32,000 bases of DNA from Nitrosomonas europaea (GCF_900167395.1 NZ_FUWK01000004.1:30001-62000), one strand, 5' to 3'; shown: positions 591 through 24,308, counted from the first letter of the stretch. The notes: a model not told the origin generated them from the sequence alone. Numbers and translations: made by a program.

Positions 591-615
591 TCACCCGGAA
601 AATGCTATTACTGTG

Positions 616-653
616 GAAATGGCGGCAATTCTCATACTGATCTGCCGCCATTT
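616..653. terminator. Perfect 12-bp stem hairpin between convergent genes
   Basis: GAAATGGCGGCA (616-627) pairs with TGCCGCCATTTC (642-653). It lies between the decarboxylase stop and the fghA stop. The U-tract is weak. Confidence 0.45.
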
Positions 654-739
654 CTGATCAACCCAGAATGACCGTTTTAGCTGGTTTTATCGGACGAGAG
701 CTCCAGTCGTTTTGCCTTGATTGTTTCCCTCATTTTGTA

Positions 740-1606: not shown

Positions 1607-1618
1607 GGTACCGGCCAC

Positions 1619-2725: not shown

Positions 2726-2884
2726 TACGGGTAATCCTTTGTTGAATTTGTTGTCGAAAGCAGTCATTGTATGTAACTGATACGATCGTGCAACCTGGAG
2801 CAAAGATCCGTTTTGGATTTTCCTTCACCCTGTATGGTCCACAGCCATACGGAACAATAAAATCAGAGAAAAGAGAGAGGAACC

Positions 2885-4744
2885 ATGAATAACCAGTCAC
2901 CCATGGACAAGAAGGCGCAGATCAACTTCTGGTACGTGCTGATTGCAGTACTCAGCATTCTCTTCATCCAGAACCTTTACAATCAGTATACGCGAATAGA
3001 GCCGATTCCCTACAGCCGCTTCCAGTCTCTGTTGGAGCAGGACAAGGTGTCCGAAGTGGCCATCACTGATCAACAGATCTTCGGCAAGCTCAAGGAATCG
3101 ACCAGTGAAAAATTCACCGAATTCGTCACCACCCGGGTTGAATCGGATCTGGCAGAAATGCTGGATAAGCACAATGTTACTTATACTGGTGTCGTCCAGA
3201 GTACCTGGTTGCGCGATCTGCTTTCCTGGATCGTACCGATGGCCGTTTTCGTTGGTATCTGGCTGTTTATCATCCGACGAATGAATAAAGGCATGATGGG
3301 AAGCGGCCTGATGTCGATCGGCAAAAGCCGCGCCAAGGTCTACGTGGAAAAAGAAACCAAGGTAACCTTTGCCAATGTTGCCGGGGTGGATGAGGCCAAG
3401 GAAGAGTTGGTCGAAATCGTCAATTTTCTCAAGAATCCCAAGGAATACAGCCGGCTGGGCGGACGGGCACCCAAAGGTATCTTGCTGGTTGGTCCGCCTG
3501 GTACCGGTAAAACCCTGTTGGCGCGCGCAGTGGCAGGTGAGGCAGGTGTACCGTTTTTCTCGATTTCCGGCTCTGAATTTGTCGAGATGTTCGTAGGCGT
3601 TGGTGCTGCCAGAGTGCGTGATCTGTTTGAACAGGCTCGCCAGATGGCGCCGGCAATCATTTTCATCGATGAGCTGGATTCACTCGGGCGCGCGCGCGGT
3701 GCAGGCGGATTTGGCGGCCATGATGAAAAAGAACAGACACTGAATCAATTACTGGCCGAACTCGATGGATTCGATCCTTCCAGTGGAATTGTCCTGCTTG
3801 CCGCGACTAACCGTCCGGAAATCCTGGATGCAGCCTTGCTGCGCGCCGGGCGTTTCGATCGTCAGGTACTGGTGGACCGGCCTGATAAAAAAGGTCGTCA
3901 GCAAATCCTGGGTGTTCATATTGGCAAAATCACACTGGCGCCCGATGTTGATACCGAACAGATCGCAGCACTGACACCTGGCTTCACAGGTGCTGATCTG
4001 GCTAATTTGATCAATGAGGCTGCGCTGCTGGCGACCCGGCGTGGTGGTCAGGCAGTCAGCATGGACGACTTCAATAATGCAATCGAGCGGATCGTAGCTG
4101 GCCTGGAAAAGAAAAATCGTCTGCTCAATCCGGAAGAAAGGCGTACCGTTGCTTACCATGAACTGGGCCATACCATGGTGGCACTTGCTCTGCCGGGATC
4201 GGATGAAGTACATAAAGTTTCGATCATCCCACGTGGTATTGGTGCACTTGGCTATACCATTCAGCGTCCCACCGAGGATCGCTTTCTTATGACACGCAAG
4301 GAGCTGGAAAACAAAATGGCGGTATTGCTGGGTGGGCGTGCAGCGGAAAGGTTGGTATTCGACGAGATTTCCACCGGTGCTTCCGATGATCTGGCGCGTG
4401 CTACCGATATCGCCCGTGCCATGGTTTTACGCTATGGCATGAGCGAGGCAATCGGGAATGTGGTTTATGATCGCGAACAAATGGCGTTTTTGCAACCTGG
4501 TTTTCCCATGCCCCAAAGCCGTGATTACAGTGAAGAAACTGCCAATAAAATTGACCAGACTGTACGTTCACTGCTTGATTTGGCGCTTGAACGTGCCATT
4601 AAAATTCTGGATAAAAATCGGGAACTGCTTGATCGAACTGCGCAGCAATTGCTGGAAACTGAAACACTGAATCAGCCGGAGTTACTGGAGCTGAAACGCA
4701 ACTTGCGTGCGGAGGAAACCAATCCGTCAACACAGCAGAACTAA
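2885..4744 (+). CDS. ftsH: ATP-dependent zinc metalloprotease FtsH
   Basis: Two N-terminal TM segments, Walker A GPPGTGKT, Walker B IIFIDELD, the SRH region and an HELGH zinc motif. An AGAGAGG SD lies upstream of the ATG. Confidence 0.9.
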
Positions 4745-5152
4745 GTGGGGAATCGCGGCAGAATCTATCCAGACGATTGCATTCTGCCCGAATTCATCAC
4801 CAATTTTCTTGGCGATGGAGAGGTCAATGCCCAGTGCAAGCAAACTTTCCTCGGCAGGCCATTCTCCGGAGGGATCGATACCTGTTCCCCGGTATATGTG
4901 GTTTGAATAACAGGCAAGTCTTTCATACAATCGAGCCATGGCAGACTGGTTTTCCTGGGAAGTTGCTACCTCGCTGGCCGGGTTGCAGGCAGTAACATAT
5001 ACTGCACTCCGATTACCGGTTGCTTGCAACAGTGCTGCCAGTGGTGCGGATTGGCAGCCAATCTGCAGGGTGACCACAGATGTATCGATCCATACCTGAT
5101 ACTGCGCGGCAAGATATTTACCAACTAATTCTTCCGAAAGGGTGGATGGCAT
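4727..5152 (-). CDS. Hypothetical protein, DUF3293-like
   Basis: 141-aa ORF with a VYVTACNPASE...N motif that matches my recollection of DUF3293. Its 3' end overlaps the ftsH stop by 18 nt (convergent). Confidence 0.55.
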   Translation of the reverse strand: MPSTLSEELVGKYLAAQYQVWIDTSVVTLQIGCQSAPLAALLQATGNRSAVYVTACNPASEVATSQENQSAMARLYERLACYSNHIYRGTGIDPSGEWPAEESLLALGIDLSIAKKIGDEFGQNAIVWIDSAAIPHLVLLC

Positions 5153-5231
5153 TATATTTTTATGTAAATTCCTGTGTGAAAGCTTGTTGATTTACAAATC
5201 TTTCTGATTATTTTTCATTGGTTGAATGTAA

Positions 5232-5951
5232 ATGAAGTTTATTGTGTTTATTCTGTTAGCGATAGGATCGGGCCTAGTCAGTGCGCAGGAACCGGTATTG
5301 TCTTCAGTTCCCGATACGCTGGAACAGCGTGTAAAACCCTGTACGATCTGTCATGGTGACGAAGACAAAGCAGGGCGGGACGCGTATTACCCGCGGATTG
5401 CAGGCAAACCTGCCGGTTATCTGTTTAATCAGTTACGCAATTTCCGCGATGGGCGGCGCTACTACCAGGCCATGGCAATTTTGCTGGAAAACCTTTCGGA
5501 TGAATATCTGCTCGAAATTGCTCATTATTTCTCTTCCCTGAAATACCCTTATCCAGAACCGGCAGCGAATACGCTTTCACCTGAGGAGATACAGGCGGTA
5601 GAAACGCTGGTTCATTCGGGTGACCCTGAACGAGATATTCCTGCATGCGGTGCTTGCCATGGAAAAGCCCTGATGGGTGTAGAACCATTTATTCCCAGTC
5701 TGCTCGGCCTGCCTCATGCCTATGTAGCAGCACAATTCGGCGGTTGGCGTAATGGCGGGATCATGCGGGGACAAACACCGGATTGCATGTCTGAAATTGC
5801 CAAAAAACTATCCCAGGAGGAAGTCAATGCGCTGACTGTGTGGCTGCCTGCTCATCCGGTAACGGGTGAACCCGCAGAAGCAGAAACACTACCCCCGGAA
5901 CTTGCTCAACGTTGTCAGACTATTTTATCCGGAGAGGGTTTTACCCGATGA
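5232..5951 (+). CDS. Dihaem cytochrome c (c4-like), periplasmic
   Basis: Signal peptide MKFIVFILLAIGSGLVSAQ and two CxxCH motifs (CTICH, CGACH). Confidence 0.85.
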   Translation: MKFIVFILLAIGSGLVSAQEPVLSSVPDTLEQRVKPCTICHGDEDKAGRDAYYPRIAGKPAGYLFNQLRNFRDGRRYYQAMAILLENLSDEYLLEIAHYFSSLKYPYPEPAANTLSPEEIQAVETLVHSGDPERDIPACGACHGKALMGVEPFIPSLLGLPHAYVAAQFGGWRNGGIMRGQTPDCMSEIAKKLSQEEVNALTVWLPAHPVTGEPAEAETLPPELAQRCQTILSGEGFTR

Positions 5952-12548: not shown

Positions 12549-13541
12549 TCAGATTTTTACTTCGTTTGCCGGTATTTCTCCAGCTACGAATCGTTTTATA
12601 TTAGCGAATGTCGTTAGTGCAATCTGATCAAGTGCTTCTTGCGTGAAAAATCCCTGGTGTGCAGTGATCAGCACATTCGGAAAAGTCATGAGCCGTGCGA
12701 TGGTGTCATCAAGAATGATCTGCTCGGAAAGATTCTGAAAAAACAGATCTGCTTCCTGCTCATAAACGTCGATACCAAGATAGCCAATCTTGCCTGATTT
12801 CAACCCGGCGATCACGGCTTTGGTATCGATCAGTCCACCCCGGCCGGTATTGATCAGCATGACACCTGTTTTCATTTGTGCAATGACGCTGCTGTCGATG
12901 AGATAGCGAGTTTCTTCATTGAGCGGACAATGCAGTGAGAGAATGTCGCACCGGGAAAAAAGCTCATTCATGGGAACATACGGAATACCCATTTTCTCGA
13001 TCTCCAGCTTCTTTACCGGGTCACAGGCGAGGATGTTGCAGCCCAGACCATGCATGATCCGGCAAAAAACTTCACCGATATGACCGGTACCAATCACACC
13101 AACCGTTTTTTTGTGAAGATCGAAGCCGAGCAGCCCGTTCAGCGAAAAATTCTGTTCACGAACACGGTTATAAGCTTTGTGTGTTTTGCGGTTCAACGTC
13201 ATGATCATTGCCAGCGTGTGTTCTGCCACGGCATGAGGGGAGTAGGCCGGAACGCGCACCACTCTGATATTACAGGCATGAGCTGCTTTGATATCTACAT
13301 TGTTGAAGCCGGCACAGCGCAGGGCGATGAGCTGCACATTCAATTGAGAAAGTTGGTGAATAACAGCTTCATTAAGGTTGTCGTTGACGAAAACACAAAT
13401 TGCCTGGCTTCCGCTGGCCAGTGACACCGTATGCTCGGTCAGTTTTTCTTCCAGAAAAACGAGTTCAAATTGCGTATCGATATGATGTTTGAGGAAGGAT
13501 TCACGGTCATACGGCTGGGTGCTGAAAAAAGTGATTTTCAT
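12549..13541 (-). CDS. ldhA: D-lactate dehydrogenase (D-isomer 2-hydroxyacid dehydrogenase)
   Basis: Near full-length resemblance to E. coli LdhA (ALRCAGFNNVD, VVRVPAYSPHAVAEH, MTLNRK, GVIGTGHIG). MKITFFS at 13541 is the likely start, not 13568. Confidence 0.88.
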   Translation of the reverse strand: MKITFFSTQPYDRESFLKHHIDTQFELVFLEEKLTEHTVSLASGSQAICVFVNDNLNEAVIHQLSQLNVQLIALRCAGFNNVDIKAAHACNIRVVRVPAYSPHAVAEHTLAMIMTLNRKTHKAYNRVREQNFSLNGLLGFDLHKKTVGVIGTGHIGEVFCRIMHGLGCNILACDPVKKLEIEKMGIPYVPMNELFSRCDILSLHCPLNEETRYLIDSSVIAQMKTGVMLINTGRGGLIDTKAVIAGLKSGKIGYLGIDVYEQEADLFFQNLSEQIILDDTIARLMTFPNVLITAHQGFFTQEALDQIALTTFANIKRFVAGEIPANEVKI

Positions 13542-13623
13542 TGAATGTTTTCCAGAGAGAAGCAGCAACGCTCAAGGAAAATATCGGGAAATATCCGGAA
13601 AGTCAAACGAGATAAAAGAAACC

Positions 13624-14766
13624 ATGCGTTGGGATATTTTCTGCCATGTGGTCGATAACTATGGCGACATTGGTATTTGCTGGCGCCTGGCGCGTCAACT
13701 GGTTACGGAATTTGACATTTCTGTACGCATGCTGGTAGACGATTTAGGGGCGATGCAACGCATTTGCCCGGCAATCGACCCTCGTCTGGCAGTTCAGAAT
13801 ATCCGGGGAGTGGAGATTCTGCACTGGGTTGAACCGTTCGCTGATCTCGTGCCGGCAGATGTGGTGATCGAGGCATTCGGGTGTGAATTACCGCCACGTT
13901 ATATAGCCGCAATGGCTGCTGCTTCACCCCGGTTTTCGGAGCCTGAAGGAAAAACAGATCGGATATGGATCAATCTGGAATACTTATCAGCCGAGCAATG
14001 GGTGGAAGGTTGTCACGGACTGGCTTCGCCACATCCCAGCTTACCGCTGATCAAATATTTCTTTTTCCCGGGATTTACTGCAGCAACTGGAGGGTTGCTG
14101 CGGGAAGCGGAACTGTTTACGCTGCGCGATGCATCACGCACTGATCCGGCAGGGTTGTGGCGCGAATTGGGTATCACCAATCCTGCTGCGGATGAGGCCA
14201 CCGTTTCGCTGTTTTGCTATGACAGTGCTCCGATCAGTGATTTGCTGGAAGCGTGGGCTGGCTCTATTTCACCTGTTCGATGTCTGTTACCGGAAGGCAC
14301 AGCTTCAGCATCAGCAGCCAGCTGGGCAGGAATATCACGCCTTGCGGCAGGAGATAGCATCCAACGCGGTAATCTGACTTTGCATGTCATCCCTTTTATG
14401 TCGCAGGAAAACTATGACCATTTATTGTGGGCGTGTGACTGCAATTTTGTACGCGGCGAGGATTCCTTCGTGCGTGCGCAGTGGGCAGTGCGGCCGATCG
14501 TCTGGCAAATTTATCCACAACAAGAAAACGTGCATCTGATCAAACTGGAAGCTTTCCTGGATCTCTATTGTCAGGAGCTGATCGAACCGGCAGCTGATGC
14601 AGTGCGCGCTTTTCATCGAAGTTGGAATAATAACGAACAACCGGATTGGAACTGTTTCTGGAAATATCGGGATGTGCTGCAACAGCATGCCATGGCTTGG
14701 GCTGAACGGCTTGCACAAATCCCGAATCTGGCTTCCAGTCTGGTAAATTTTTGCAGGAATCGGTGA
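13624..14766 (+). CDS. earP: EF-P arginine-32 rhamnosyltransferase EarP
   Basis: MRWDIFCHVVDNYGDIGICWRLARQL is the characteristic EarP (DUF2331) N-terminus. It lies immediately upstream of an Arg32-type efp. The ATG at 13624 is codon 46 of the track ORF. Confidence 0.85.
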   Translation: MRWDIFCHVVDNYGDIGICWRLARQLVTEFDISVRMLVDDLGAMQRICPAIDPRLAVQNIRGVEILHWVEPFADLVPADVVIEAFGCELPPRYIAAMAAASPRFSEPEGKTDRIWINLEYLSAEQWVEGCHGLASPHPSLPLIKYFFFPGFTAATGGLLREAELFTLRDASRTDPAGLWRELGITNPAADEATVSLFCYDSAPISDLLEAWAGSISPVRCLLPEGTASASAASWAGISRLAAGDSIQRGNLTLHVIPFMSQENYDHLLWACDCNFVRGEDSFVRAQWAVRPIVWQIYPQQENVHLIKLEAFLDLYCQELIEPAADAVRAFHRSWNNNEQPDWNCFWKYRDVLQQHAMAWAERLAQIPNLASSLVNFCRNR

Positions 14767-14839
14767 TTATTTACTCGTTCTGCCGGTGAAGTCAAAGTAT
14801 AATGTTCTTTTTTTTCCATGACTTATAGTAAGTAATTAG

Positions 14840-15397
14840 ATGAAAACTGCTCAAGAACTTCGTGTAGGCAATGTGTTCATGCTCGGCAAAGACCCCATGG
14901 TCGTGCTGAAAACCGAATTTACCAAATCGGGACGCAATTCCTCAGTGGTAAAAATGAAGTACAAGAATTTGCTGACTGAATCGCCTGGTGAAGCTGTATA
15001 CAAAGCGGATGATAAATTCGATATAGTAGTGCTGGATAAGAAAGAGGTGAACTATTCCTATTTTGCCAGCCCGATGTACGTATTCATGGATGCTGAATTC
15101 AATCAGTATGAGGTTGAAGAGGAAACCATGAGTGATGCACTCAGCTTTCTGGAAGATGGTATGCCCTGCGAGGTTGTGTTCTACAACGATAAACCTATCT
15201 CAGTTGAATTGCCTAATACGGTTGTACGCGAGATCATTTACACCGAGCCCGCAATCAAAGGTGATACCACAGGCAAAGTACTGAAACCCGCAAAAATTCC
15301 TACTGGTTTTGAACTGGCGGTACCCTTGTTTTGTGAAATTGGCGACAAGATCGAAATCGATACCCGGACACGTGAATACCGCAGTCGCGTCAAGTAA
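14840..15397 (+). CDS. efp: Translation elongation factor P, Arg32 type
   Basis: Full-length EF-P. The loop KSGRNSS places Arg at position 32, the EarP substrate. Confidence 0.95.
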
Positions 15398-15468: not shown

Positions 15469-15512
15469 AGATTCTGATTTATCAGATTAACTCGGCTTTT
15501 GCTGCTTATTTA

Positions 15513-15540
15513 ATTTCGTATAATGTATAAGCAATAAAAT
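15513..15540 (+). other. dif-like hybrid recombination site 1 (putative attL): intact XerC arm and core, degenerate XerD arm
   Basis: ATTTCGTATAA-TGTATA-AGCAATAAAAT. The first 17 nt are identical to the full dif at 17203; the XerD arm matches at 5 of 11 positions. Confidence 0.65.
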
Positions 15541-15776
15541 CAATGGCTTGCACAATTACAAAATTTCCAGGAGAAAAATTCAGAGGAAAATTAGCGCGTG
15601 AAAAATTTGCATTCATGATTTAAAAAATAGTTGATCGTTGAAAAAATATCCAGAAAAAGAGGCAGCAAGAATTTCACGCCAACCCCAAAAGGGGGGGCGG
15701 CGACGGATAAACGCGGCCAAGTGCTTGCCGCATCCGTCTACGCCTAAAAACCATAAACCCCGTTTTGCAGGGTGGT

Positions 15777-15840
15777 GGATGGGGGGCGAGCGGCAGCAAT
15801 CCCGAACCGTTACGGCGTAACCCGCGACGGAAAAAGCTGC
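15777..15840 (+). repeat. Intergenic motif, copy A (homologous to 17836-17902)
   Basis: The core CGTTACGGCGTAACCCGCGACGGAAAAAGCTGC (15808-15840) aligns with 17871-17902 at about 28 of 33 columns (hand alignment). The upstream G6-containing stretch also aligns. Confidence 0.6.
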
Positions 15841-16015
15841 AACCCACGATTACTGATGACCCGTAATCGCGGGAGTCGCTTATTTCCTGCTGGCCACAGA
15901 AAGGGCTTAAAACGCGATTTAAGCGATTTTCATCATTCCAACGCCTTCGGGGTGCTGCTCGATCGCTCTATCGCTGCGCTCATCGCTTCTCGCCGCACCC
16001 AGAGGCACAAACCGT

Positions 16016-16582
16016 TCATGGTGTATCCCCCTGAATGACCTTGACCGGAACCGAAGAGATCTCCCCGCAGATCCGATCAACCATGGACGCAAGGAAATTG
16101 AGGTGGACAGGCGTAAACGCCATACCATCTGGGGAGAGCAGACGACCGTCATGACACATCCAGCCGCGCCACGCATTACCGGGTAACGCAAACGGTACCA
16201 GTGCTGTTTCCCCAGAACCGACACGACGACGGTATTCCTTATCCCACATGCGGGCTTTGTCGATCGTCCAGTTAAGCGGGTAGAGATCGCCAGGAGTAAA
16301 GGTTTTGCCTTCAGGAGAAATCAATTTGTTACGTAGTAACATCCAGTTTTTCCACTCTTTACCGGGTAGTTCATAGCCCGTCAGGATACGAAGAAGCCGG
16401 AACGCGGCATACGGCATGTGAACCAAGCCGCGTTCCCAGTACTGGACAGTACGCAGTGAAACCCGAAGCATATCGGCAACCTGTTGCCGCGTAAGACCCG
16501 CCAGCAGCCTTGTTTCACGGATGGTGTCATAGTTCACAGGCTTGTACGGCTTGCGTTTGTAGTGGCGTTTACGCATGGCCAT
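16016..16582 (-). CDS. HTH regulator, DUF3653-like phage protein
   Basis: An AGGGGG SD lies before the ATG at 16582. HTH LTRQQVADMLRVSLRTVQYWERG is followed by two W-x2-W...L-x-SP-x-G-x2-FTP repeats. It is homologous to the ORF at 17402-17836. Confidence 0.7.
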   Translation of the reverse strand: MAMRKRHYKRKPYKPVNYDTIRETRLLAGLTRQQVADMLRVSLRTVQYWERGLVHMPYAAFRLLRILTGYELPGKEWKNWMLLRNKLISPEGKTFTPGDLYPLNWTIDKARMWDKEYRRRVGSGETALVPFALPGNAWRGWMCHDGRLLSPDGMAFTPVHLNFLASMVDRICGEISSVPVKVIQGDTP

Positions 16583-16787
16583 CCCCCTTGTGAAACTTGA
16601 GGCGGAAACGATGAAAACCCGATTTACGCGGTGGTCGAATATCAAGAGACGTAATGCACCAGATGTTGTGAGAATCCTTGAATCCCTTGATCCGACCTTC
16701 AGACAGCAATCGCCGAACACGCTGGGGAGTGATTCCATGAAAATTCGCAACATCCTGAACGGTGAAATATGAAATTTGAATATGCAT
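16569..16787 (-). CDS. Small excisionase/MerR-type HTH DNA-binding protein
   Basis: YFTVQDVANFHGITPQRVRRLLSEGRIKGFK...W matches the excisionase-family HTH pattern. It overlaps the next gene by 14 nt. Confidence 0.6.
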   Translation of the reverse strand: MHIQISYFTVQDVANFHGITPQRVRRLLSEGRIKGFKDSHNIWCITSLDIRPPRKSGFHRFRLKFHKGDGHA

Positions 16788-16914
16788 CTAACCCCCCGAA
16801 ATCCGTTGAAAATATGCTGTTTGAATAATTTCAAGGCTAAAAACCTGAAAACCCAGTCTGGGAGCGGGTTTGGAGTGCTTTAAAACCGGAGAAAAATGGA
16901 CAGAATTGGCAGTA

Positions 16915-16941
16915 ACTTTACGTGTTACTGGCACGTAAAGT
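16915..16941. repeat. 10-bp-stem hairpin, copy A (same hairpin as 22811-22837)
   Basis: ACTTTACGTG-TTACTGG-CACGTAAAGT. With two flanking bases, the 29-nt TAACTTTACGTGTTACTGGCACGTAAAGT occurs exactly twice in the window. A T-run follows on the + strand. Confidence 0.8.
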
Positions 16942-16947
16942 TTTTTC

Positions 16948-17157
16948 TCAATCGCTGTCCCGGTTAACGAAGTTCTCCAGGGAACCATACTCAAGTTTGA
17001 TTTCAAGCATGGCCAGCCGACACGGCAACCACAGGAAGAAATTGATCCAAAACTGCTTGAAACCAAGTCGTTCCATAGCCTTGATGAGCCAGGATGAAAA
17101 GGAACTGTTGATAAGCGCACAGAACAGGCCGCCATAGCGGTTTTTTTGATTTGACAT
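16948..17157 (-). CDS. Hypothetical small protein (69 aa)
   Basis: Strong AAGGAGG SD upstream of the ATG at 17157, and the ORF ends just before the conserved hairpin. The function is unknown, and alternative overlapping frames exist (16788-17135). Confidence 0.35.
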   Translation of the reverse strand: MSNQKNRYGGLFCALINSSFSSWLIKAMERLGFKQFWINFFLWLPCRLAMLEIKLEYGSLENFVNRDSD

Positions 17158-17202
17158 AATGCATTTCCTCCTTTGTTTTCGTACCGGCGGCACGAGCATT
17201 GT

Positions 17203-17230
17203 ATTTCGTATAATGTATATTATGTTAAAT
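17203..17230 (+). other. dif: Complete chromosomal dif site (XerC arm - core - XerD arm)
   Basis: ATTTCGTATAA-TGTATA-TTATGTTAAAT. The core and XerD arm are identical to the E. coli dif 28-mer GGTGCGCATAATGTATATTATGTTAAAT; the XerC arm matches at 7 of 11 positions. Confidence 0.85.
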
Positions 17231-17314
17231 AGAAGATGCAGAGAACGAAGGAAGAAATTCAGAAGGAAGGCAGATTACATCGCTGATCTAATCTATAGAT
17301 TGCTGACCCCTTTC
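17231..17314 (+). repeat. dif-flank module, copy at site 2 (homologous to 23625-23712)
   Basis: It shares AGGAAGGCAGATTA (identical 14-mer), CTGATCT, (A/T)AGATT and GCTG-CCC-TT-C blocks in the same order at nearly the same distance from the dif core (33 vs 34 nt). Confidence 0.65.
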
Positions 17315-17331
17315 GGACCATTAAGGCTCGC

Positions 17332-17383
17332 GTGCTGACAGTACCAGCACTTTTTGATACCCGCCACGCGCGGGTATTTTTTT
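17332..17383 (+). terminator. Two tandem hairpin plus T-run terminators
   Basis: GTGCTG/CAGCAC (17332-17350) followed by TTTTT, then ATACCCGC/GCGGGTAT (17356-17376) followed by TTTTTTT. Confidence 0.55.
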
Positions 17384-17401
17384 GTCCGGAGAAAAATAAA
17401 A

Positions 17402-17836
17402 ATGGATGATCTGATATACGGTATTAGCGTTGAAGTATTACAGGAAATCACAGGTGAAGAGCTGCGAGTGATCAAACAATGGAAGAAAGGCACGAGAAAG
17501 CCATCAGAATCGGCAATAAGGCTGATAAATCTATTTGTGCATGGCAAGGCATGTGCATTATTAGGAAATAGCTGGAATGGCTTCTATTTCAGAAATGGAA
17601 AATTATTTGTTCCTGAATGGCGTAATGGATTCTCGGCCGGGGAAATACGCACCCTGTTCTTTCGGTGTCAGCTGGTTGTGTATCTGGAAAGTGAGATCAG
17701 ATTATTAAAGGCAGAGCTGGAGCGCAGAAACCTTGACATCGAAGAGTTGGAAATAAAGGCAGACTTCTACAGGCGGCAAATCAGCACAGAGAGCAAGTTC
17801 GGGATGATGCTGGAAAGATGCTTCGGGGTTATGTAG
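17402..17836 (+). CDS. DUF3653-like phage regulator
   Basis: LRVIKQWKKGTRKPSESAIRLI...W-x-GF...NGKLFVPE...FSAGEI aligns with the 16016-16582 protein. It has a coiled-coil-like C-terminus. ATG at 17402 is preferred. Confidence 0.6.
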   Translation: MDDLIYGISVEVLQEITGEELRVIKQWKKGTRKPSESAIRLINLFVHGKACALLGNSWNGFYFRNGKLFVPEWRNGFSAGEIRTLFFRCQLVVYLESEIRLLKAELERRNLDIEELEIKADFYRRQISTESKFGMMLERCFGVM

Positions 17837-17902
17837 GAATACGGGGGGTGTGATAGCGCGTCAGGTCAGGCGTTACGGTGAGACCCGCGACGAAAAATCT
17901 GC
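17836..17902 (+). repeat. Intergenic motif, copy B (homologous to 15777-15840)
   Basis: CGTTACGGTGAGACCCGCGACGAAAAATCTGC (17871-17902) plus the upstream ACGGGGGG stretch. It lies in the non-coding gap downstream of zot. Confidence 0.6.
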
Positions 17903-18074
17903 GTTGCGCCGGTACCCTAAAACCAACACCGGGTCCGGCGGCCTCGATATTTTCTGCTGGACAAATGAGAACCGCCAGAGGGCGAACCAACTGGCGGCTA
18001 TGATCATCATTTTTGAATCGGGCAATGGAGGTACAAATCACCCGGATATGGTATCGGCGGCAATCCGCAGGACT

Positions 18075-19061
18075 TTAGACTTTTGTCTCTTGACCAGGCC
18101 AACCGCTCGACACTGCCTTGCGGCAGGTCTCCGGAGGGACGACAAGGCGCTCCGCGCTCTTGCCGTAGCAGATGCATTTGGCTTGCGTTGCCACGCAAGC
18201 CCCTACTTTAGACCAATCAATCTGATCAGATACAAGGGCAAGAGTAACGGGACGGGCAACAGTTGTGACGGTTGTTACTGGGGCCGATGTTAATTTTTGC
18301 TGGGATAAATGAGGGTCATCCGTCTTTTGTTCATCCTTGACAACTTTTGGAGATTCTGATGATTTTGAATCAAGGAAACGATCCTTGAAGGTGAAACCCG
18401 TATAGATAAGTGCGAAGAAAGCAATCGGTACAACGTAAGCCATGAGAGGTTTACGACGTTTCTGCGTAATATGCATGCTAGCTGATCTGTAGAGTCCGTA
18501 AGCTTCTTTCGGTAGCTCGTAACGCTGTGATACTGCCTTGAGTTTGCTACTTGTGGCCCTGACTGTTGCGCAGTATTCAGGCCATTCGTAACGCTTCCTG
18601 CCATGCCAGTCTGAAAGCATATGAATGTGCTTATCGACTACTGCCAGCACATTCTTATGTATCAACTGAGGTGCCTGAGTAATCAGGACAAATTCCAACC
18701 CGTGATGGCGATGTTTGGTTAAGTATTTGATGTCTTCTCCGGGCTCCCTGGAACCAGAGGCTGGCCAAAGATACTGAACCTCATCAATTACGATAAGTGC
18801 ACCCTCAGTAATGTTCTGCAACCGCGAGGGTTTTTCATCGTCAGGAATCGGAATACCAGATGGGTTTTCAACCTCGACAAGTTCCCTGTCAGCCCATCTT
18901 TTCACCTGGCTATAACTCAGGGAAATTGCCGGGAGTTTGAGTTCAGGAATCCCGGCGGTGTAAACAACTCTATCGGCTTCAACAGCGGGCTTGATGATGT
19001 TCCAGACAGCAAAAATTGTTTTACCCGCACCCGGTGCGGCAGTAATTAAAGTAATGCTCAT
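18075..19061 (-). CDS. Zot/pI-like filamentous phage assembly ATPase
   Basis: N-terminal Walker A AAPGAGKT, Walker B-like LIVIDEVQ, one TM segment (AYVVPIAFFALIYTGFTF) and a C-terminal periplasmic part. There is a 4-nt ATGA overlap with the upstream gene. Confidence 0.85.
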   Translation of the reverse strand: MSITLITAAPGAGKTIFAVWNIIKPAVEADRVVYTAGIPELKLPAISLSYSQVKRWADRELVEVENPSGIPIPDDEKPSRLQNITEGALIVIDEVQYLWPASGSREPGEDIKYLTKHRHHGLEFVLITQAPQLIHKNVLAVVDKHIHMLSDWHGRKRYEWPEYCATVRATSSKLKAVSQRYELPKEAYGLYRSASMHITQKRRKPLMAYVVPIAFFALIYTGFTFKDRFLDSKSSESPKVVKDEQKTDDPHLSQQKLTSAPVTTVTTVARPVTLALVSDQIDWSKVGACVATQAKCICYGKSAERLVVPPETCRKAVSSGWPGQETKV

Positions 19062-19348
19062 TTGTTGAGAACACCAAGTGTTTTACGCTGTACCTGAAAA
19101 GCAACCCGAAAAGTGATAGCGGCTGTAACGATACCAAGGCACTGACCAAGGCCAGCAAGGTTAGCAAGATTCGCAACGGAAGATGGCAACCCGAAGTATT
19201 GAGTTTGCATGTAAGTCAGTGCAGCACCTACGCTGACCGTGAGGCCCGCATAGCTGATAACCCCGATACCCAGCGATGTAAGTACACGTACAGCAAGCGG
19301 CCCGGCAGCAGCTTCGAGAAATGCGCCCAGCGGGATAAGTATGTTCAT
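19058..19348 (-). CDS. pVI-like minor virion protein (DUF2523-like)
   Basis: 96-aa polytopic hydrophobic protein directly upstream of zot, the conserved inovirus position. Confidence 0.65.
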   Translation of the reverse strand: MNILIPLGAFLEAAAGPLAVRVLTSLGIGVISYAGLTVSVGAALTYMQTQYFGLPSSVANLANLAGLGQCLGIVTAAITFRVAFQVQRKTLGVLNK

Positions 19349-19405
19349 GTTGTTAATCTCATCAAAATATTAAAAGCATGTTCTTCTGCTAGTCGTAAGT
19401 GGTAG

Positions 19406-20731
19406 TTAAGTGCCAGCGCGAGATATGCCGGCAACAATAAACATCGCGGCAACAGATGCAAAAAGCACAAAGATCGGCCGCAACTGCACAGCTGTATCAC
19501 AGGCTGGTTGCCAACTGACAGGAAAAGTCACGCCCTGAACGGTAAGTATTTCATCCGGCGGACATGTCCCCTCCCCCCAGGATTCCGGAGTCTGCAAATT
19601 AAACTCTGGTTGTTCTTCTTCAAGTTGAGCTGGCGGAACATCATCAAACGATACGGTAGTTTCATCGGTGCCAGTTTTGGGCGGCGAGTTATCAGAGGTT
19701 GAAGTCTGAGTGTTGGTGATTTCGTTGTTTTCGTTGTAAGTCGTGATCGTGGTAACTTCGGTCACGTTATAAGTAACGTTATTGGTTGTGCTGGTATCTT
19801 CGACCTTGACAGATGTGGTTGCAACTTGTGTGCCGGTGATGTTGCCCTGGGCATCTTTGGTTTGTGTGGATGTCTGGGCAATCTGCTGGATTACGGGGGC
19901 AGATTGGGTTGAGGCCAAAACCGGGACGGGGGCATCAGAGTTATAGAGGGCTTCGGCGGTTTGTTGGGGTTGGGCATTGAGCTTGGTTTCAGCGTCTGTC
20001 CAGTGCGTTTCAGTAACAGGCACGGGGGCATTGTTGTGTACGCACTCGTTGCCAACTTTGGTATATCCAGTAAAGCAATTTCCACTGTTGACTTTGACGA
20101 TTGAGTAATTAGGGGGCGCTGTTTCTGTTGGCGGATTGTTAGTCTTGTCGGAGTAGATGCAATAAGAGGTACCGCCAGAGACTTCTACACGTAAGAACGT
20201 CAGATTATTCGGGGCGAAATGGACTGCCGCGCGGTAATCAAAACTTTTACAAAGAAGGTCTGCTGTAACGTGAGTCAAGCTAACATAAAACGGATGACGC
20301 CAGTAACCCGTTTCGGTGGTTACTGGGTAACCAGCCGGCATATCAGGGGCATATTCAATCTCACCCGATTGGGAATTTCGGCAGATATCAGTAAGGTCAC
20401 AAACGGTATCATAGAGAGCAATTGCGGTACCAATTGCCGGTAGAGTTTTTAGAAACCGGGTTGCGGCTTTTCCGACTTTTGAGGGTTCAACCGGAAAGGT
20501 TTTTTCAACCGGGACGAGAAATTGACCTTTTGAGGTGTTGACGGGGATATCTTTGGATATGCCGGCATTGGGATATGCGAGCGAGGTTCCACCGCCGGGG
20601 CGTTGTATATGTACCTCACCATCAATGACTTTAACGTTCGGATACGGATCGTGAAATTCGTAGGCGGAGACGACGGGAACGTAGAAAACGCCGAGTATGG
20701 CGCAGACGATCAGCTTCCGAACAGTATCCAT
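19406..20731 (-). CDS. pIII-like receptor-binding/adsorption protein
   Basis: Signal peptide, an N-terminal Cys-containing domain, a long Thr/Asn/Gln-rich low-complexity linker and a C-terminal TM anchor (IFVLFASVAAMFIVAGI). Its position is between the coat genes and the pVI-like gene. Confidence 0.7.
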   Translation of the reverse strand: MDTVRKLIVCAILGVFYVPVVSAYEFHDPYPNVKVIDGEVHIQRPGGGTSLAYPNAGISKDIPVNTSKGQFLVPVEKTFPVEPSKVGKAATRFLKTLPAIGTAIALYDTVCDLTDICRNSQSGEIEYAPDMPAGYPVTTETGYWRHPFYVSLTHVTADLLCKSFDYRAAVHFAPNNLTFLRVEVSGGTSYCIYSDKTNNPPTETAPPNYSIVKVNSGNCFTGYTKVGNECVHNNAPVPVTETHWTDAETKLNAQPQQTAEALYNSDAPVPVLASTQSAPVIQQIAQTSTQTKDAQGNITGTQVATTSVKVEDTSTTNNVTYNVTEVTTITTYNENNEITNTQTSTSDNSPPKTGTDETTVSFDDVPPAQLEEEQPEFNLQTPESWGEGTCPPDEILTVQGVTFPVSWQPACDTAVQLRPIFVLFASVAAMFIVAGISRAGT

Positions 20732-20784
20732 GTCGATCCCAATATAGCGAGCAAAACATAAAGAGCGTTTGGATCATCAAACAT
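20710..20784 (-). CDS. Candidate 24-aa hydrophobic peptide (g7/g9-like small coat protein)
   Basis: An AGGAG SD lies 6 nt before the ATG at 20784, which is 2 nt after the upstream stop. The peptide is MFDDPNALYVLLAILGSTWILFGS. It overlaps the start of the pIII-like gene and is below the ORF-track length cut-off. Confidence 0.3.
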   Translation of the reverse strand: MFDDPNALYVLLAILGSTWILFGS

Positions 20785-20786
20785 AA

Positions 20787-21101
20787 TCAACTCCTGATAA
20801 CTTCAGCGACTTTTTTAGCCATGTAAGCAACAACCCAAGCGCCCGCGATAAGCCAGGCTGCATCAATAGCATCATGCATTTGTGCGTTAGGGTCACAAGC
20901 GATCTGTTGCGGTATGTAATCAGTGCTTACTGGTACGGGTATTAAGCCAGTATTCGTACGTGTGATAACGATCTTGTCGGTAGACGGGACACACCGGATT
21001 GTGTATGCCCCGTCCGGGGAAACAGTCGGGCAATTACCGGCAATCTCTTGATGGAGGTCAAGAGTTGTGGAATAGCATTTGCCTTGGTAGTAATTGCCCA
21101 T
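20787..21101 (-). CDS. Hypothetical minor virion protein
   Basis: 104 aa with a C-terminal TM plus basic tail (AAWLIAGAWVVAYMAKKV). It lies between the major coat and pIII-like genes. Confidence 0.5.
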   Translation of the reverse strand: MGNYYQGKCYSTTLDLHQEIAGNCPTVSPDGAYTIRCVPSTDKIVITRTNTGLIPVPVSTDYIPQQIACDPNAQMHDAIDAAWLIAGAWVVAYMAKKVAEVIRS

Positions 21102-21113
21102 TTGATCAGCCTC

Positions 21114-21317
21114 TTAGAATACTCTGGTGATCCATTTCCAAACTTTGATGCCAACAACGATGGTAATTACCAAAGCGCCAGCAGCAGCAATATCAGCTTT
21201 AGCCGCTGTAATAGCCGTTGTCACATCTTCGGGCAAATCGGCACGTGCAGATGCGGCGAAAAGTACCAGCGGGGATGCGTAAGCAGCATTGGTCAGGCGC
21301 TGTTTAAAGTTTTTCAT
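21114..21317 (-). CDS. Inovirus major coat protein (pVIII-like)
   Basis: Signal peptide ...FAASARA. The mature ~41-aa protein has an acidic N-terminus (DLPED), a hydrophobic core and a basic C-terminus (KVWKWITRVF). A GGAG SD is present. Confidence 0.8.
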   Translation of the reverse strand: MKNFKQRLTNAAYASPLVLFAASARADLPEDVTTAITAAKADIAAAGALVITIVVGIKVWKWITRVF

Positions 21318-21396
21318 TTGTTACTCCTATTTAAAGTTAAAGAAAGGCGGCATGCGTAATACACACCCCCCAACCCCGCAGGCTGGGGGCTGGGTA

Positions 21397-21702
21397 CTAC
21401 CGGGCAGGAGATGCAGCAGCCGGGACGGGTCGAAGAGCATTGATCACCGTCTTGGGGCCTTTATTGCTGGATAAGGTCAGAAACTCGACTTCGCAAACCA
21501 GTGGGAAATCGTGATTCATTAAGGCTTTGGCTTCTTTGGATGATGCGAGCGGATAAGCTGTAGTCGAAGACCCTTTGGCAGTGCCTTTTCTGAAATCAAG
21601 CAGATGTTCGATAAACACCTTGCCTGAATCAATATGTTTTCCATCATCAAGGGTTCCGTCAAAAAACGTGATTCCGGTCACTTTTACTTTTTCAATTGCC
21701 AT
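21397..21702 (-). CDS. Putative ssDNA-binding protein (pV-like), assigned by position only
   Basis: 101-aa soluble ORF between Rep and the coat gene, the usual pV slot. I recognised no diagnostic motif. Confidence 0.45.
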   Translation of the reverse strand: MAIEKVKVTGITFFDGTLDDGKHIDSGKVFIEHLLDFRKGTAKGSSTTAYPLASSKEAKALMNHDFPLVCEVEFLTLSSNKGPKTVINALRPVPAAASPAR

Positions 21703-21766
21703 TTGTTTTTCCTTACGCCTGTTGAATGCCTGTTCCGGATGTGGCGGATAAACCCGGGGCAGAAAA

Positions 21767-22774
21767 TTAACCGTAGTTCTGGATGTACCAGTCGGGAGCC
21801 GTGAGTGGCTTGAGTTCTACAACGCGAACCCTTGAGGGAAGATGGTGAACGTTGTTCGGGATGGAGATATCAACGCCGTAGGCGAGTAATTCAGTGCGGT
21901 GACGATAGCGAGTAGCCCTACTGATATCTAACGGAAGCCCTAATTTCCAACTGGCATAAGTCGATCGAAGATGCTTCGGAAGATCGTTAAAGTTTTCGTA
22001 TTTCATGTCCTCTAACCTCTGAAGTTGTGTGCGGTCGGCGTATATCTGATTGAGATTGTCTTGTGTGATTGCGCCTAGATAAGCAAGGTTGTTTTGTAAA
22101 AGGAAGCGGGATTTAAGGGTGAATTCTTCCCGAAGAATGCCTTCGGTTTTGCAGTAGTCGATGACGTCATCAGAGACGTGTGAGCCGGATTTCTTGGAAC
22201 GATGCTTTTCCAGTTCTTGATATTTGGCGTAGAGCTTGCCGTAGACGTATTTAGACCCCCTGCCGTATTCAACCGTCCCGGAATCAGGAGACAGTGAACC
22301 TTTTTGACGGCCAACATGCTGGCCTGCCATGTGGCAAAGGACGGCATGCATGGATTCTTTGGAGCCAGTGCTGTAATTACAGGTCAGATCGATGCGGGAG
22401 ACACGAGCGCCTGACCATGACCAGCCGGTATCAGCGAATTTATAGAGCTTGCCGGATGTGAACGGCGGCAGACCCAGAAGCGACAGCAGATCGTTAATGC
22501 GGGCAATCGTTGTCGGCCAATCATATCCAAAAAGATTGTCACGACGGCCATAGCGGGAAATGTTACCGGTGAATTCAACCGTATTGCCATCGCAGCGAAC
22601 CTGAACGCGGGAATCATACGAACCTTCAATGATGCAGCGCACATCGGTTGAATATTCGATCTCACCATCCGCATCAACTTTGAGAACTTTTCCATCATTC
22701 AGAACCGGCAGACCCCCGCCAAAATACTCCTGACGGATGGTCACGTAGTCGATGAAAACCGGGGAAGTTTCCAT
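21767..22774 (-). CDS. Rolling-circle replication initiator (gene II/X, RstA-like, Rep_trans family)
   Basis: The IDYVTIRQ N-terminal motif, the size and a KLYAKYQE motif resemble Rep_trans proteins of CTX/Cf-type inoviruses. The ATG at 22774 lies 2 nt after the upstream stop; the track start at 22789 is a TTG. Confidence 0.7.
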   Translation of the reverse strand: METSPVFIDYVTIRQEYFGGGLPVLNDGKVLKVDADGEIEYSTDVRCIIEGSYDSRVQVRCDGNTVEFTGNISRYGRRDNLFGYDWPTTIARINDLLSLLGLPPFTSGKLYKFADTGWSWSGARVSRIDLTCNYSTGSKESMHAVLCHMAGQHVGRQKGSLSPDSGTVEYGRGSKYVYGKLYAKYQELEKHRSKKSGSHVSDDVIDYCKTEGILREEFTLKSRFLLQNNLAYLGAITQDNLNQIYADRTQLQRLEDMKYENFNDLPKHLRSTYASWKLGLPLDISRATRYRHRTELLAYGVDISIPNNVHHLPSRVRVVELKPLTAPDWYIQNYG

Positions 22775-22776
22775 GG

Positions 22777-23115
22777 CTAAAATGAGCAAAAAGTCTCACC
22801 GGTGAGACTAACTTTACGTGTTACTGGCACGTAAAGTATTTTTTGCCCTTCGCTTCCCCTTCCCTCACTCCTCGCTGGCGCTCGTCGTTCGGTCTGGTTG
22901 CGCTCGGTTTGATAGTAGAAATCGAGAACGGTTAGAAGGTTGAAAATCTGGCCGGGTGGCAGCGAACTGGTGTCGTCGAGTGCGGAGAGATAGCAGCGGG
23001 CGGCGAAGTGGTTGCCGGGTTTGGTGATATTGCGGAGTAGAAAGCCAAAAATACTGTACTGCAATGACAATTGATTAAGTGCCGGATATGGCGTAATACC
23101 TGATTCTGTAAGCAT
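22777..23115 (-). CDS. Hypothetical protein (112 aa), first gene of the leftward operon
   Basis: Strong GGAGG SD 5 nt before the ATG at 23115, and the stop is coupled to the rep ATG. Its 3' part is encoded by the two palindromes, so the true extent is uncertain. Confidence 0.4.
   Translation of the reverse strand: MLTESGITPYPALNQLSLQYSIFGFLLRNITKPGNHFAARCYLSALDDTSSLPPGQIFNLLTVLDFYYQTERNQTERRAPARSEGRGSEGQKILYVPVTRKVSLTGETFCSF
22792..22837. repeat. Perfect 18-nt palindrome plus the conserved 10-bp-stem hairpin, immediately upstream of rep
   Basis: AGTCTCACCGGTGAGACT (22792-22809) is followed by ACTTTACGTG-TTACTGG-CACGTAAAGT (22811-22837). The latter is the same hairpin as at 16915-16941. Confidence 0.8.
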
Positions 23116-23141
23116 TTTTCCTCCACATTGAATGACCCTGT

Positions 23142-23170
23142 TTGACTTGTGGAATTAAGAACCCTAGAAT
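23142..23170 (+). promoter_or_regulatory. Sigma70-like promoter for the repressor gene
   Basis: TTGACT, a 17-nt spacer, then TAGAAT. It overlaps face-to-face with a leftward TTGATG-16 nt-TATTCT candidate (23193-23166). Confidence 0.45.
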
Positions 23171-23243
23171 ATTGGGGTAATTTCACGCATCAAATTTAAT
23201 GCAGATATTAAGCGCATCAAAACCAATGCGTCAAGGAGAAAAA

Positions 23244-23621
23244 ATGAACGAACTTAAAAAATATATAGAAACCGGAACAGAAAAGGCCGGAACACAGAAA
23301 GAACTAGCAAAAATTATAGGAATCGCTGACGCAAACTTGAGAACAGCTAAATCAGGAATCAGAGGATTACCAATTGAGGTTTGTATACAGCTAGCAAATT
23401 ACCTCAAAGAAGACGAATTGAAAGTAATACTGGCAAGCGAAATGGTCACTGCAAAAGATGAGAAGAAGAGAAAAATATTAGAAAGCTGCATGCAAAAGTC
23501 AAAAGAAAGAATAAGCGCAATGATTGTAGGCGGCTTAGTTATTTCAATGCTAACCCTCTCCCCGCTTGAGTCTGCAGAAGCAAAAGTCGTTGAAAATCAG
23601 GATTCTATGTATATTATGTAA
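23244..23621 (+). CDS. XRE/Cro-C1-type HTH repressor candidate with a hydrophobic C-terminal segment
   Basis: An AAGGAG SD lies before the ATG at 23244. HTH TQKELAKIIGIADANLRTAKSG. It is divergent from the rep operon and visibly AT-rich. The stop codon lies inside the dif-like site. Confidence 0.65.
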   Translation: MNELKKYIETGTEKAGTQKELAKIIGIADANLRTAKSGIRGLPIEVCIQLANYLKEDELKVILASEMVTAKDEKKRKILESCMQKSKERISAMIVGGLVISMLTLSPLESAEAKVVENQDSMYIM

Positions 23622-23624
23622 AAT
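23597..23624 (+). other. dif-like hybrid recombination site 3 (putative attR): degenerate XerC arm, intact core, near-perfect XerD arm
   Basis: TCAGGATTCTA-TGTATA-TTATGTAAAAT. The XerD arm matches site 2 at 10 of 11 positions; the XerC arm matches at 2 of 11. Confidence 0.6.
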
Positions 23625-23712
23625 TAATTGCAAGAAATGCTATAGACGCTATAGAAAGAGGAAGGCAGATTATCTTTCTGATCTGCTTTACAGATTATTG
23701 CTGGCCCTTTTC
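23625..23712 (+). repeat. dif-flank module, copy at site 3 (homologous to 17231-17314)
   Basis: Same ordered blocks as copy 2, including the identical AGGAAGGCAGATTA at 23659-23672. Confidence 0.65.
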
Positions 23713-23816
23713 AAATCACTTGAATCAGAACTGCGTGGATATTATTGTCTGTTGCATGGCCTTTGTGGCATTCTGCTTATATCAAATGAAACGGGGGAAA
23801 ATTCGAGGAGTTGACA

Positions 23817-24308
23817 ATGAACTATTATACTTTTCTGGAAAGTCCTGTGGATCGACTGTTACTCACGAGTGATGGTGAGTTTCTTACAGGCGTGTATATG
23901 GAAATAGAGATACAGAAACTGCTGCCTCGCATGACAGATGACTGGCGGCAGGATGCCGCCCCTTTCGCAGAGGCGATTGCTCAGTTGAATGCTTATTTCG
24001 CGGGGGAACTGATTCAGTTTGATCTGCCCATGAAAGCGACTGGCACACCATTTCAGGAAGCGGTTTGGCAATCACTTAGCACTATTCCCTATGGTGAGAC
24101 TGTCAGTTATAAAAATATCGCAGAACGCCTGCACTTACCCAAGGCCGCACGTGCAGTGGGTATGGCCAATGGTCAGAATCCCATTTCGATCATTATCCCC
24201 TGTCATCGTGTTATCGGTGCCAATGGCAAGCTGACAGGTTATGGGGGGGGAATTCATCGTAAACAGTGGCTGCTGGCACATGAAGACAAGCAAACTTCTT
24301 TTGCCTGA
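23817..24308 (+). CDS. ogt: Methylated-DNA--protein-cysteine methyltransferase
   Basis: PCHRVIG active site and a GAGGAG SD 6 nt before the ATG at 23817 (the track start is a TTG at 23811). Confidence 0.9.

Follow-up and report, generated by a model that had tools for sequence, protein, structure and literature searches.

At one end of a filamentous prophage in Nitrosomonas europaea ATCC 19718, a repressor gene runs into the site that joins the phage to the chromosome, and its stop codon lies inside that site. This raises the question of whether the repressor has another length when the phage is a circle, and what a second length could mean for the phage. We analysed the window, which is a stretch of 32,000 nucleotides of this genome, and compared it with relatives of the phage. 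Coordinates are counted from the first letter of the window.

The repressor gene and the Xer sites around it

Three Xer sites (sites 1, 2 and 3) lie in a row at this locus. The repressor gene ends in the last of them:

23142-23170 (+): promoter-like site 5′ of the repressor gene, TTGACT-17-TAGAAT (consensus scan only, 10 of 12 matches)
23244-23621 (+): repressor gene in its integrated short form, 125 aa (ORF call, start ATG at 23244)
23597-23624 (+): site 3, a dif-like site and the right prophage junction
23619-23621 (+): TAA stop in the XerD arm of site 3, made by the A at 23620

The ORF ends ...GAT TCT ATG TAT ATT ATG TAA. A sequence-only reading of this DNA had proposed that these last codons are the dif core and XerD arm of site 3, and recomputing the exact codons and coordinates gave the same result. 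The central region of the site, TGTATA, is at 23608-23613 and its XerD arm, TTATGTAAAAT, at 23614-23624, while the arm on the XerC side, TCAGGATTCTA, is highly degenerate (2/11 matches to dif). The same reading had attributed the stop to one base, and this is correct: the 17-mers of sites 3 and 2 have a single difference, A23620 versus T17226, and the ORF stops at TAA because base 23620 of the XerD arm is A.

The 125-aa protein is an exact match to N. europaea WP_041356575/NE0886. It matches phrog_638, annotated in PHROG as "transcriptional regulator", with E=4.5e-10, and HTH_3 weakly, with E=7.8e-4, a match that does not reach the Pfam cut-off. AlphaFold2 models residues 1-70 as a helical bundle, the HTH domain, with pLDDT >90. 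Residues 90-108 form a TM-like hydrophobic helix (Kyte-Doolittle hydropathy maximum 1.96), preceded by a +4 flank and followed by a -3 stretch, and the short form closes with an acidic 17-aa end. Model confidence is <50 for the hydrophobic helix and the linker, and the model does not decide the topology. The gene is divergent from rep, with promoter-like sites in between.

The features at the other prophage end are these:

17203-17230 (+): site 2, a perfect 28-bp dif and the left prophage junction, ATTTCGTATAA TGTATA TTATGTTAAAT
17225-17338 (+): tail of 37 codons and a TGA stop, joined to the repressor only across attP
17332-17350 and 17356-17378 (+): two terminator-like hairpins closing the long-form gene (hairpin search)

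In the repressor register, site 2 reads ATG TAT ATT ATG TTA AAT AGA... and stays open for exactly 37 codons (LNRRCRERRKKFRRKADYIADLIYRLLTPFGPLRLAC) up to the TGA at 17336-17338, inside the first hairpin. This extension and its stop had also been proposed, and they were recomputed exactly. The tail consists of a basic stretch followed by an amphipathic helix, with net charge +9, in agreement with its earlier description as basic and amphipathic. AlphaFold2 predicts a helix at residues 120-152 of the long form with pLDDT 58-71. The long-form C-terminus, ..GPLRLAC, has no clear ssrA-like tag, and the tail ends of other family members (..HMPA, ..HVTA, ..HMAA, ..APC and ..CPG) include no clear ..LAA or ..VAA tag. 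An open stretch of 37 codons is within chance, in that 20-33% of arbitrary start positions in the window reach the same length. Its significance therefore rests on comparative data and not on the window alone.

A search of 23621-23811, from the end of the short gene up to ogt, found no plus-strand terminator. The gene's own terminators stayed at the other prophage end. In the lysogen, transcription from the repressor promoter may run into ogt. A 59-aa ORF at 17159-17338 extends from the neighbouring element 1 across the perfect dif, which gives in-frame ATGs at 17213 and 17222, into the tail. It resembles P0042, a 113-aa left-junction ORF found elsewhere. Such left-junction ORFs are probably not real genes.

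The remaining parts of the locus are:

15511-15538 (+): site 1, left junction of element 1, in which the dif XerC arm and central region are joined to a degenerate XerD arm, AGCAATAAAAT
15539-17202 (no strand): element 1, between sites 1 and 2, without structural genes
17231-23596 (-): inovirus prophage body (Pfam and PHROG matches)
17402-17836 (+): XafT-like (DUF3653) gene, directly 3′ of attP in the circular form (Pfam DUF3653, 24.1 bits against a cut-off of 22.4)
18075-19061 (-): zot/gI (Pfam/PHROG)
19058-19348 (-): g6-like gene (Pfam/PHROG)
19406-20731 (-): g3-like gene (Pfam/PHROG)
21114-21317 (-): coat gene (Pfam/PHROG)
21397-21702 (-): ssDNA-binding-like gene (Pfam/PHROG)
21767-22789 (-): rep (Pfam/PHROG)
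23625-23720 (+): left-end remnant of an older related phage, with a tail pseudo-ORF, KINCKKCYRRYRKRKADYLSDLLYRLL... (79% repeat with 17264-17301)
23811-24308 (+): ogt, 3′ of the remnant and followed by rsmA

The prophage between sites 2 and 3 is a complete inovirus with all phage genes intact. Its XafT-like ORF reaches 27.5 bits against NCBIfam VC1465_fam, which is marginal and under the cut-off of 70; this 144-aa gene is kept in the circular relatives described below. Element 1 has an ORF at 16016-16834 (-) encoding an HTH protein that scores 171 bits against the same model (Xer recombination activation factor) and contains two DUF3653 stretches in Pfam. We read element 1 as a TLC-like satellite IMEX, and it could provide XafT in trans to the adjoining phage. 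Directly to its left, on the chromosome side of site 1, are earP (EF-P rhamnosyltransferase) and efp (13489-15397), which are ordinary chromosomal genes.

Element 1 and the phage share two further sequences. A 34-nt hairpin-forming sequence occurs with 97% identity at 16913-16946, in element 1, and at 22809-22842, just upstream of the rep start codon; the same motif is present in two other contigs (L009 and L010). It may be a common operator or origin through which the satellite exploits phage functions. The second sequence is a conserved block, GCGTTACGG..ACCCGCGACGAAAA, followed by a variable hairpin and TATTTTCTGCTGG; it is found at 15760-15910 and 17825-17975, and is common to element 1 and the xafT-zot intergenic regions of the phage and of the related elements L005 and L138. 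This block may be a packaging signal or a minus-strand origin.

The sequence of site 2 is the N. europaea dif published by Carnoy and Roten, at genome position 964528 (PMC2731167). Circular relatives of the phage have the same XerD arm, TTATGTTAAAT, and the same flank, and from this comparison we assign the arm of site 2 to the phage attP. The annotated dif is then a hybrid, with its XerC side from the satellite element and its XerD arm from the phage. The site 3 arm, TTATGTAAAAT, occurs in 25 of 120 genome hits that have the same XerC arm and central region, mostly in Methylophilaceae, Methylotenera and Nitrosomonadales. It is the listed dif arm of Methylobacillus flagellatus (PMC2731167), and the A arm recurs at independent right junctions. 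We rejected the idea that its A is a decay mutation or "attR" defect, since TTATGTAAAAT is a natural variant of the dif arm. The three sites could have arisen by successive IMEX integrations, in which site 2 would combine the XerC arm of element 1 with the XerD arm of the phage, and site 3 the C side of the phage with the resident arm. The phage would bring T (sense) and the resident site would give A (stop).

The long form and its tail in relatives

A search with the 125-aa protein found P0001, a protein of 162 aa whose first 125 residues are identical and which continues with a 37-aa tail. It is encoded on two Logan contigs, L001 and L002, of 6411 nt each. Given that these contigs have a 30-nt (k-1) terminal overlap, are differently permuted and come from different runs, a 6381-bp circle is indicated. 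A third contig, L138 (6335 nt, with ends that overlap by 30 nt), aligns with the window prophage along its length at 80-87% identity. The 37-aa tail of its long form, P0020, is one residue (K to Q) off the reconstruction from the window, and block 17261-17344 of the window is identical in DNA to the block in L138 and L139. The sequence-only reading had suggested looking for an uninterrupted ORF across attP in related phages, and such an ORF, of 162 aa, is present on these circular relatives of ~6.3 kb. In addition, the 90%-identity protein cluster of the window repressor has both 125-aa and 162-aa members.

The clearest case comes from a sister strain. Contig L140 (DRR075734) encodes a long form, P0023. 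Its positions 1-5351 match positions 2361-7706 of contig L141 at 99.4% identity, and its positions 5260-5791 match 380-911 of L141 at 99.8%. L141 belongs to a set of sister-strain chromosomal contigs (L141-L145) whose flank is 95% identical to the window, and which have the phage at the same ogt-proximal site, with the ogt/rsmA flank, and in the short form, P0017. Because the long-form contig and the short-form contigs are 99.4-99.8% identical, the same phage is seen in both states. At the junction of L140, the C side of the right site is joined to the D side of the left site, which matches the junction that had been reconstructed for the window from the C side of site 3 and the D side of site 2. 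The junctions of L001, L002 and L138 read ...GGATTCTA T(G/A)TATA TTATGTTAAAT AGAAGATGC... with no stop, and a site 3-like C side is joined to a T arm. In these three contigs and in L140, the dif-like attP is directly visible inside the 3′ end of the ORF. A metagenome scan added three further A-arm short forms and one T-arm long form, which has a different HTH allele and the same tail.

For the prophage of the window, attP is known by reconstruction from sites 2 and 3, with the predicted junction ...GATTCTATGTATATTATGTTAAATAGAAG... The earlier proposal of two isoforms holds for DNA and ORFs, as 125- and 162-aa forms in relatives, but the exact 162-aa ATCC 19718 sequence is absent from the protein collection, and neither a circular nor a tandem junction of precisely this prophage was found. 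Viral contigs scanned for the exact attP pattern gave no match, nor did 50,697 phage records searched with the whole prophage by blastn and with the long form by tblastn, and a word-indexed search with a 41-aa tail alone gave no candidates. Reconstruction of one related junction, L133, gives a stop immediately behind the arm. A circular contig and a tandem prophage array have identical junction sequences, and so do Xer excision and rolling-circle production.

Other relatives are rearranged. L005 (positions 1-3330; Nitrosomonas sp. GCA_044507425.1) is a related prophage whose left end is broken by a Tn3-family transposon (resolvase, DDE_Tnp_Tn3) and which has, beyond its right junction, 530 nt left over from the left end of another phage. 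L131/L137 (IMGVR_UViG_2737471629_000002) and L132 are distant relatives (44-48% identity) with arrays of two different phages or copies per contig. Short and long junction types stand side by side in these arrays; L132 has both, at positions 68 and 6247 of a 7-kb contig.

The tail is not limited to close relatives. With HMMER, 234 hits were obtained among 1.84 billion representatives; the profile spanned all 162 positions, so the whole repressor family was retrieved, and P0042 is the only hit to the tail alone. Among the best 150 of the 234 cluster representatives, 59 have a dif-core 4-mer peptide (patterns YIM[LS], [CFY][IV]LC and [ILMV][FY]YV), at a median residue of 120, where shuffles give an expectation of 0.55. 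Thirteen of the 59 end within 3 residues of this peptide, and 41 run for at least 20 residues further, usually 29-44, of which the first 20 carry a net charge of +3.9 on average. Other family members read dif in the reverse orientation (..NIHYTK, ..NTNYTQ). In close relatives, the variable columns of 26 conserved tail codons are distributed as 7/1/8 over codon positions 1/2/3, a bias that is suggestive of coding constraint (chi-square about p=0.07).

The tail is found in all three frames relative to dif, and its frame goes with the arm base. Tails in the "YIM" frame (ATG TTA) stand behind T or C arms, and those in the "ILC" frame (TGT AAA) behind A arms. Ten sites are concordant, 2 ("YYV") are neutral, and the 1 exception lies in a decayed junction; when sites are collapsed by lineage, Fisher's test gives p=0.03. 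In L078 and L001, the tail block is identical in DNA while the arm base and the spacer length differ, and each frame is open. The remnant at 23625-23720, which contigs L141-L145 of the sister strain have as well, is a homologue of the tail behind site 2 with its register shifted by one base; it is in the "ILC" frame and held open by the A arm. At left junctions, "ILC"-frame tails lack a start codon downstream of the TAA that lies in the XerC arm, and are therefore translatable only as the extension of an ORF that enters through attP. For the same reason, it is unlikely that the tail is an independent small gene. Judged by these comparisons, the tail is a coding feature across the family.

Explanations for the two repressor lengths

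The explanation that we favour, with a probability of roughly three in four, is a dif-integrating filamentous phage (IMEX) with attP in the 3′ end of its repressor gene, which encodes 162 aa on the circle and 125 aa when integrated. On the circle, the gene would run from the HTH through the hydrophobic helix, the acidic linker, the dif core (..MYIM), LN and a 35-residue basic amphipathic tail to the tandem terminators, with the XafT-like gene beyond. Host XerCD would recombine attP with the resident dif, with XerD probably activated by the XafT/DUF3653 factor of the phage or of element 1. Integration would move the XerD side of attP (arm, tail, terminators and xafT-like gene) to the far left prophage end and join the repressor to the resident arm TTATGTAAAAT, whose A would give ATG TAA and 125 aa. 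Excision, or a junction between tandem copies, would restore the 162-aa form. At the level of sequence, the comparisons establish that attP lies in the gene, that one allele has ORFs of two lengths, that integration costs the gene its terminators and that the arrangement is conserved throughout the family.

Three rival explanations were weighed against this one. Read-through of attP might be incidental, with the form of ~125 aa functional in both states and the 37-codon extension tolerated and functionless, its sequence being kept for DNA-level reasons near attP (as an Xer accessory sequence, a packaging signal or a minus-strand origin). An open stretch of this length is common by chance, the tail adjoins attP and structured DNA (the terminators), and the 7/1/8 codon-position bias is weak, all of which fits. 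However, such an extension would not be expected to have an arm base (T/C or A) matched to the tail frame in unrelated lineages, nor an identical tail block behind different arm bases and spacers that is open in both cases (L078 and L001). Diverged tails are still basic and amphipathic in 41 clusters, and "ILC"-type left-junction tails lack a start codon of their own. We consider incidental read-through unlikely. A different objection is that the prophage is a fixed, decaying remnant, whose TAA is a mutation in a dead att site with no regulatory meaning in N. europaea today. The exact circle junction of this strain is absent from the collection, the short form is found on 39 contigs as a stable chromosomal gene, and a decayed phage remnant lies next door. 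Against this, every phage gene is intact, independent right junctions also have the A arm, which is a natural dif variant, and the prophage of the sister strain has a matching circle junction. A dead prophage is possible for this strain and not for the family, and as the general explanation we find it improbable.

The third rival accepts both lengths, but has the long form report tandem prophage copies instead of an episome. The apparent circles would then be assembly cycles of head-to-tail arrays (compare CTX arrays), both isoforms would be chromosomal, and the switch would sense the neighbour. IMEX arrays are common. The locus itself already carries three successive elements, the sequence of an internal array junction is that of attP, and L132 has both junction types on one 7-kb contig. 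Yet three different phages each assemble cleanly into a closed circle of the length of a phage, with k-1 overlaps and without a branch into the chromosome, and the phages have complete replication and assembly modules. As a replacement for the circle, an array is in our view improbable too; the two are compatible, since the tandem-array reading is not exclusive of the dif-integrating phage with attP in its repressor.

Returning to that explanation, we infer that the two isoforms behave differently, a difference that the sequence-only reading had proposed as a readout of integration state. The short form might be a stable immunity repressor that is anchored in the membrane N-in/C-out. The +9 tail could keep the C-terminus from being translocated, or change the stability or oligomerisation of the protein, and the episomal repressor would then act differently. 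Of the possible differences we prefer the one in membrane topology, as a guess held with low confidence; it and a degradation mechanism like that of mycobacteriophage BPs appear equally compatible with the present data.

The arrangement can be extended into a more general proposal, which is tentative and which we regard as somewhat doubtful. Xer recombination would be a translational switch on a membrane-anchored repressor in a large inovirus family of Beta- and Gammaproteobacteria. The T or A at position 7 of the XerD arm would be a stop/sense toggle in two frames, ATG-TTA/TAA and TGT-TAA/AAA, and phage types would co-evolve the arm base and the tail frame. A host dif or a heterotypic neighbour would truncate the repressor, and an episome or a homotypic tandem neighbour would keep the +9 helix, flipping topology, stability or activity. 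The repressor would by this means sense both the integration state and the kind of neighbour.

Phages of this kind borrow host recombinases for integration and lack an integrase that they could regulate. Should the two isoforms differ in activity, they would amount to a minimal lysogeny switch for Xer-exploiting phages, invented in parallel to the integration-dependent immunity of actinobacteriophages. A difference in activity would also explain why attP and the repressor travel as a module. The annotated size of prophage repressors of this family, the phiRSS0 ORF13 type discussed below, will also be wrong, depending on the state of the template.

Relation to known systems

Among the ORFs and the Pfam and PHROG matches between sites 2 and 3, there is no phage-encoded tyrosine integrase; the dif junctions at the prophage ends point to host XerCD. 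XafT/DUF3653 factors activate XerD and make integration reversible (PMC6744903), and CTX-I vibriophages have an RstR-attP-XafT lysogeny module (PMC12715192). With the XafT-dependent IMEXs TLCphi and CTX-I (PMC6744903, PMC12715192), the phage of the window shares dif integration by host XerCD and a factor of the DUF3653/XafT type next to attP. Further common features are that the repressor and the xafT-like gene flank attP and are split by integration, and that a TLC-like satellite (element 1) lies beside the phage. However, attP is described as located between genes in TLCphi and CTX-I and is inside the repressor ORF here, and the DUF3653 match of our phage is weak. TLCphi has a degenerate XerD arm, whereas the attP of the window phage has a degenerate arm on the XerC side. 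We rejected a folded ssDNA attP of the CTXphi type, which has two inverted dif-like sites, because a phage unit has a single dif-like site; the one further arm-like match, at 17149-17159 (-), falls in element 1.

Integration also shortens a repressor in mycobacteriophage BPs: gp33 has 136 aa in the viral form and 103 aa in the prophage, and an ssrA-like tag leads to degradation of the longer protein (PMC4557955). With BPs and clusters G, I, N and P (Broussard et al. 2013; PMC4557955, PMC3694055), the present phage shares an attP in the repressor ORF and a shorter prophage form, which in those phages lacks ~33 C-terminal residues. By contrast, BPs is an unrelated tailed dsDNA phage of Actinobacteria with its own tyrosine integrase and a tRNA-type attB, in place of host XerCD and dif. 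The BPs mechanism was demonstrated with its ssrA-like tag, while our predicted long form ends ..RLAC with no such tag evident.

The closest precedent is phiRSS0 of Ralstonia. Its dif-type attP lies inside ORF13, an HTH regulator of 156 aa, and integration creates a stop that leaves 130 aa; the two forms were proposed to differ in function (Yamada 2013, PMC3816273). ORF13 (Yamada 2013, PMC3816273; Askora & Yamada 2015, PMC4471427) is a homologue of the window repressor: phmmer against ORF13, in a 175-sequence set, gives E=3.3e-8 for P0001 and 4.5e-6 for the 125-aa protein of the window. The window protein and ORF13 are both in phrog_638, with reported E values of 1.4e-11 and 1.4e-40. They share the HTH, the hydrophobic helix, a ..PSPAEAAP.. 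linker, the dif-core peptide, a basic helical tail and the terminator. In both phages, attP is inside the ORF, XerCD integration at the host dif makes a new stop, and the gene runs divergently to the rest of the phage genes. In Ralstonia, genomes of free phages encode 156 aa, and prophage-derived records stop at residue 130.

The two phages differ in host family, in tail length (37 aa compared with 26 in phiRSS0) and in sequence, with an identity of about 21-25%. They are also mirror images of each other. The phiRSS0 genome (JQ408219) reads ..RFILCK IARRLRERLQQALRAVQTSPKTAPC*, which is the "ILC" frame; there the phage has the A arm and the host repeat quoted for it the T arm (PMC3816273), giving TGT TAA on integration. 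In N. europaea the frame is "YIM", and the phage has the T arm and the resident site the A arm, giving ATG TAA.

The sequence-only reading had taken the arrangement to be one that had not been described before. This does not stand, given the report on the homologous ORF13 (PMC3816273) and the analogous gp33 of BPs (PMC4557955). By its sequence, the window repressor is a homologue within the already described phiRSS0 ORF13 kind. What is new is the breadth of the arrangement, together with its reciprocal two-frame toggle at one base of the arm. The phiRSS0 arrangement is not an isolated case: inovirus repressors share it as a conserved design in at least dozens of clusters at 50% identity.
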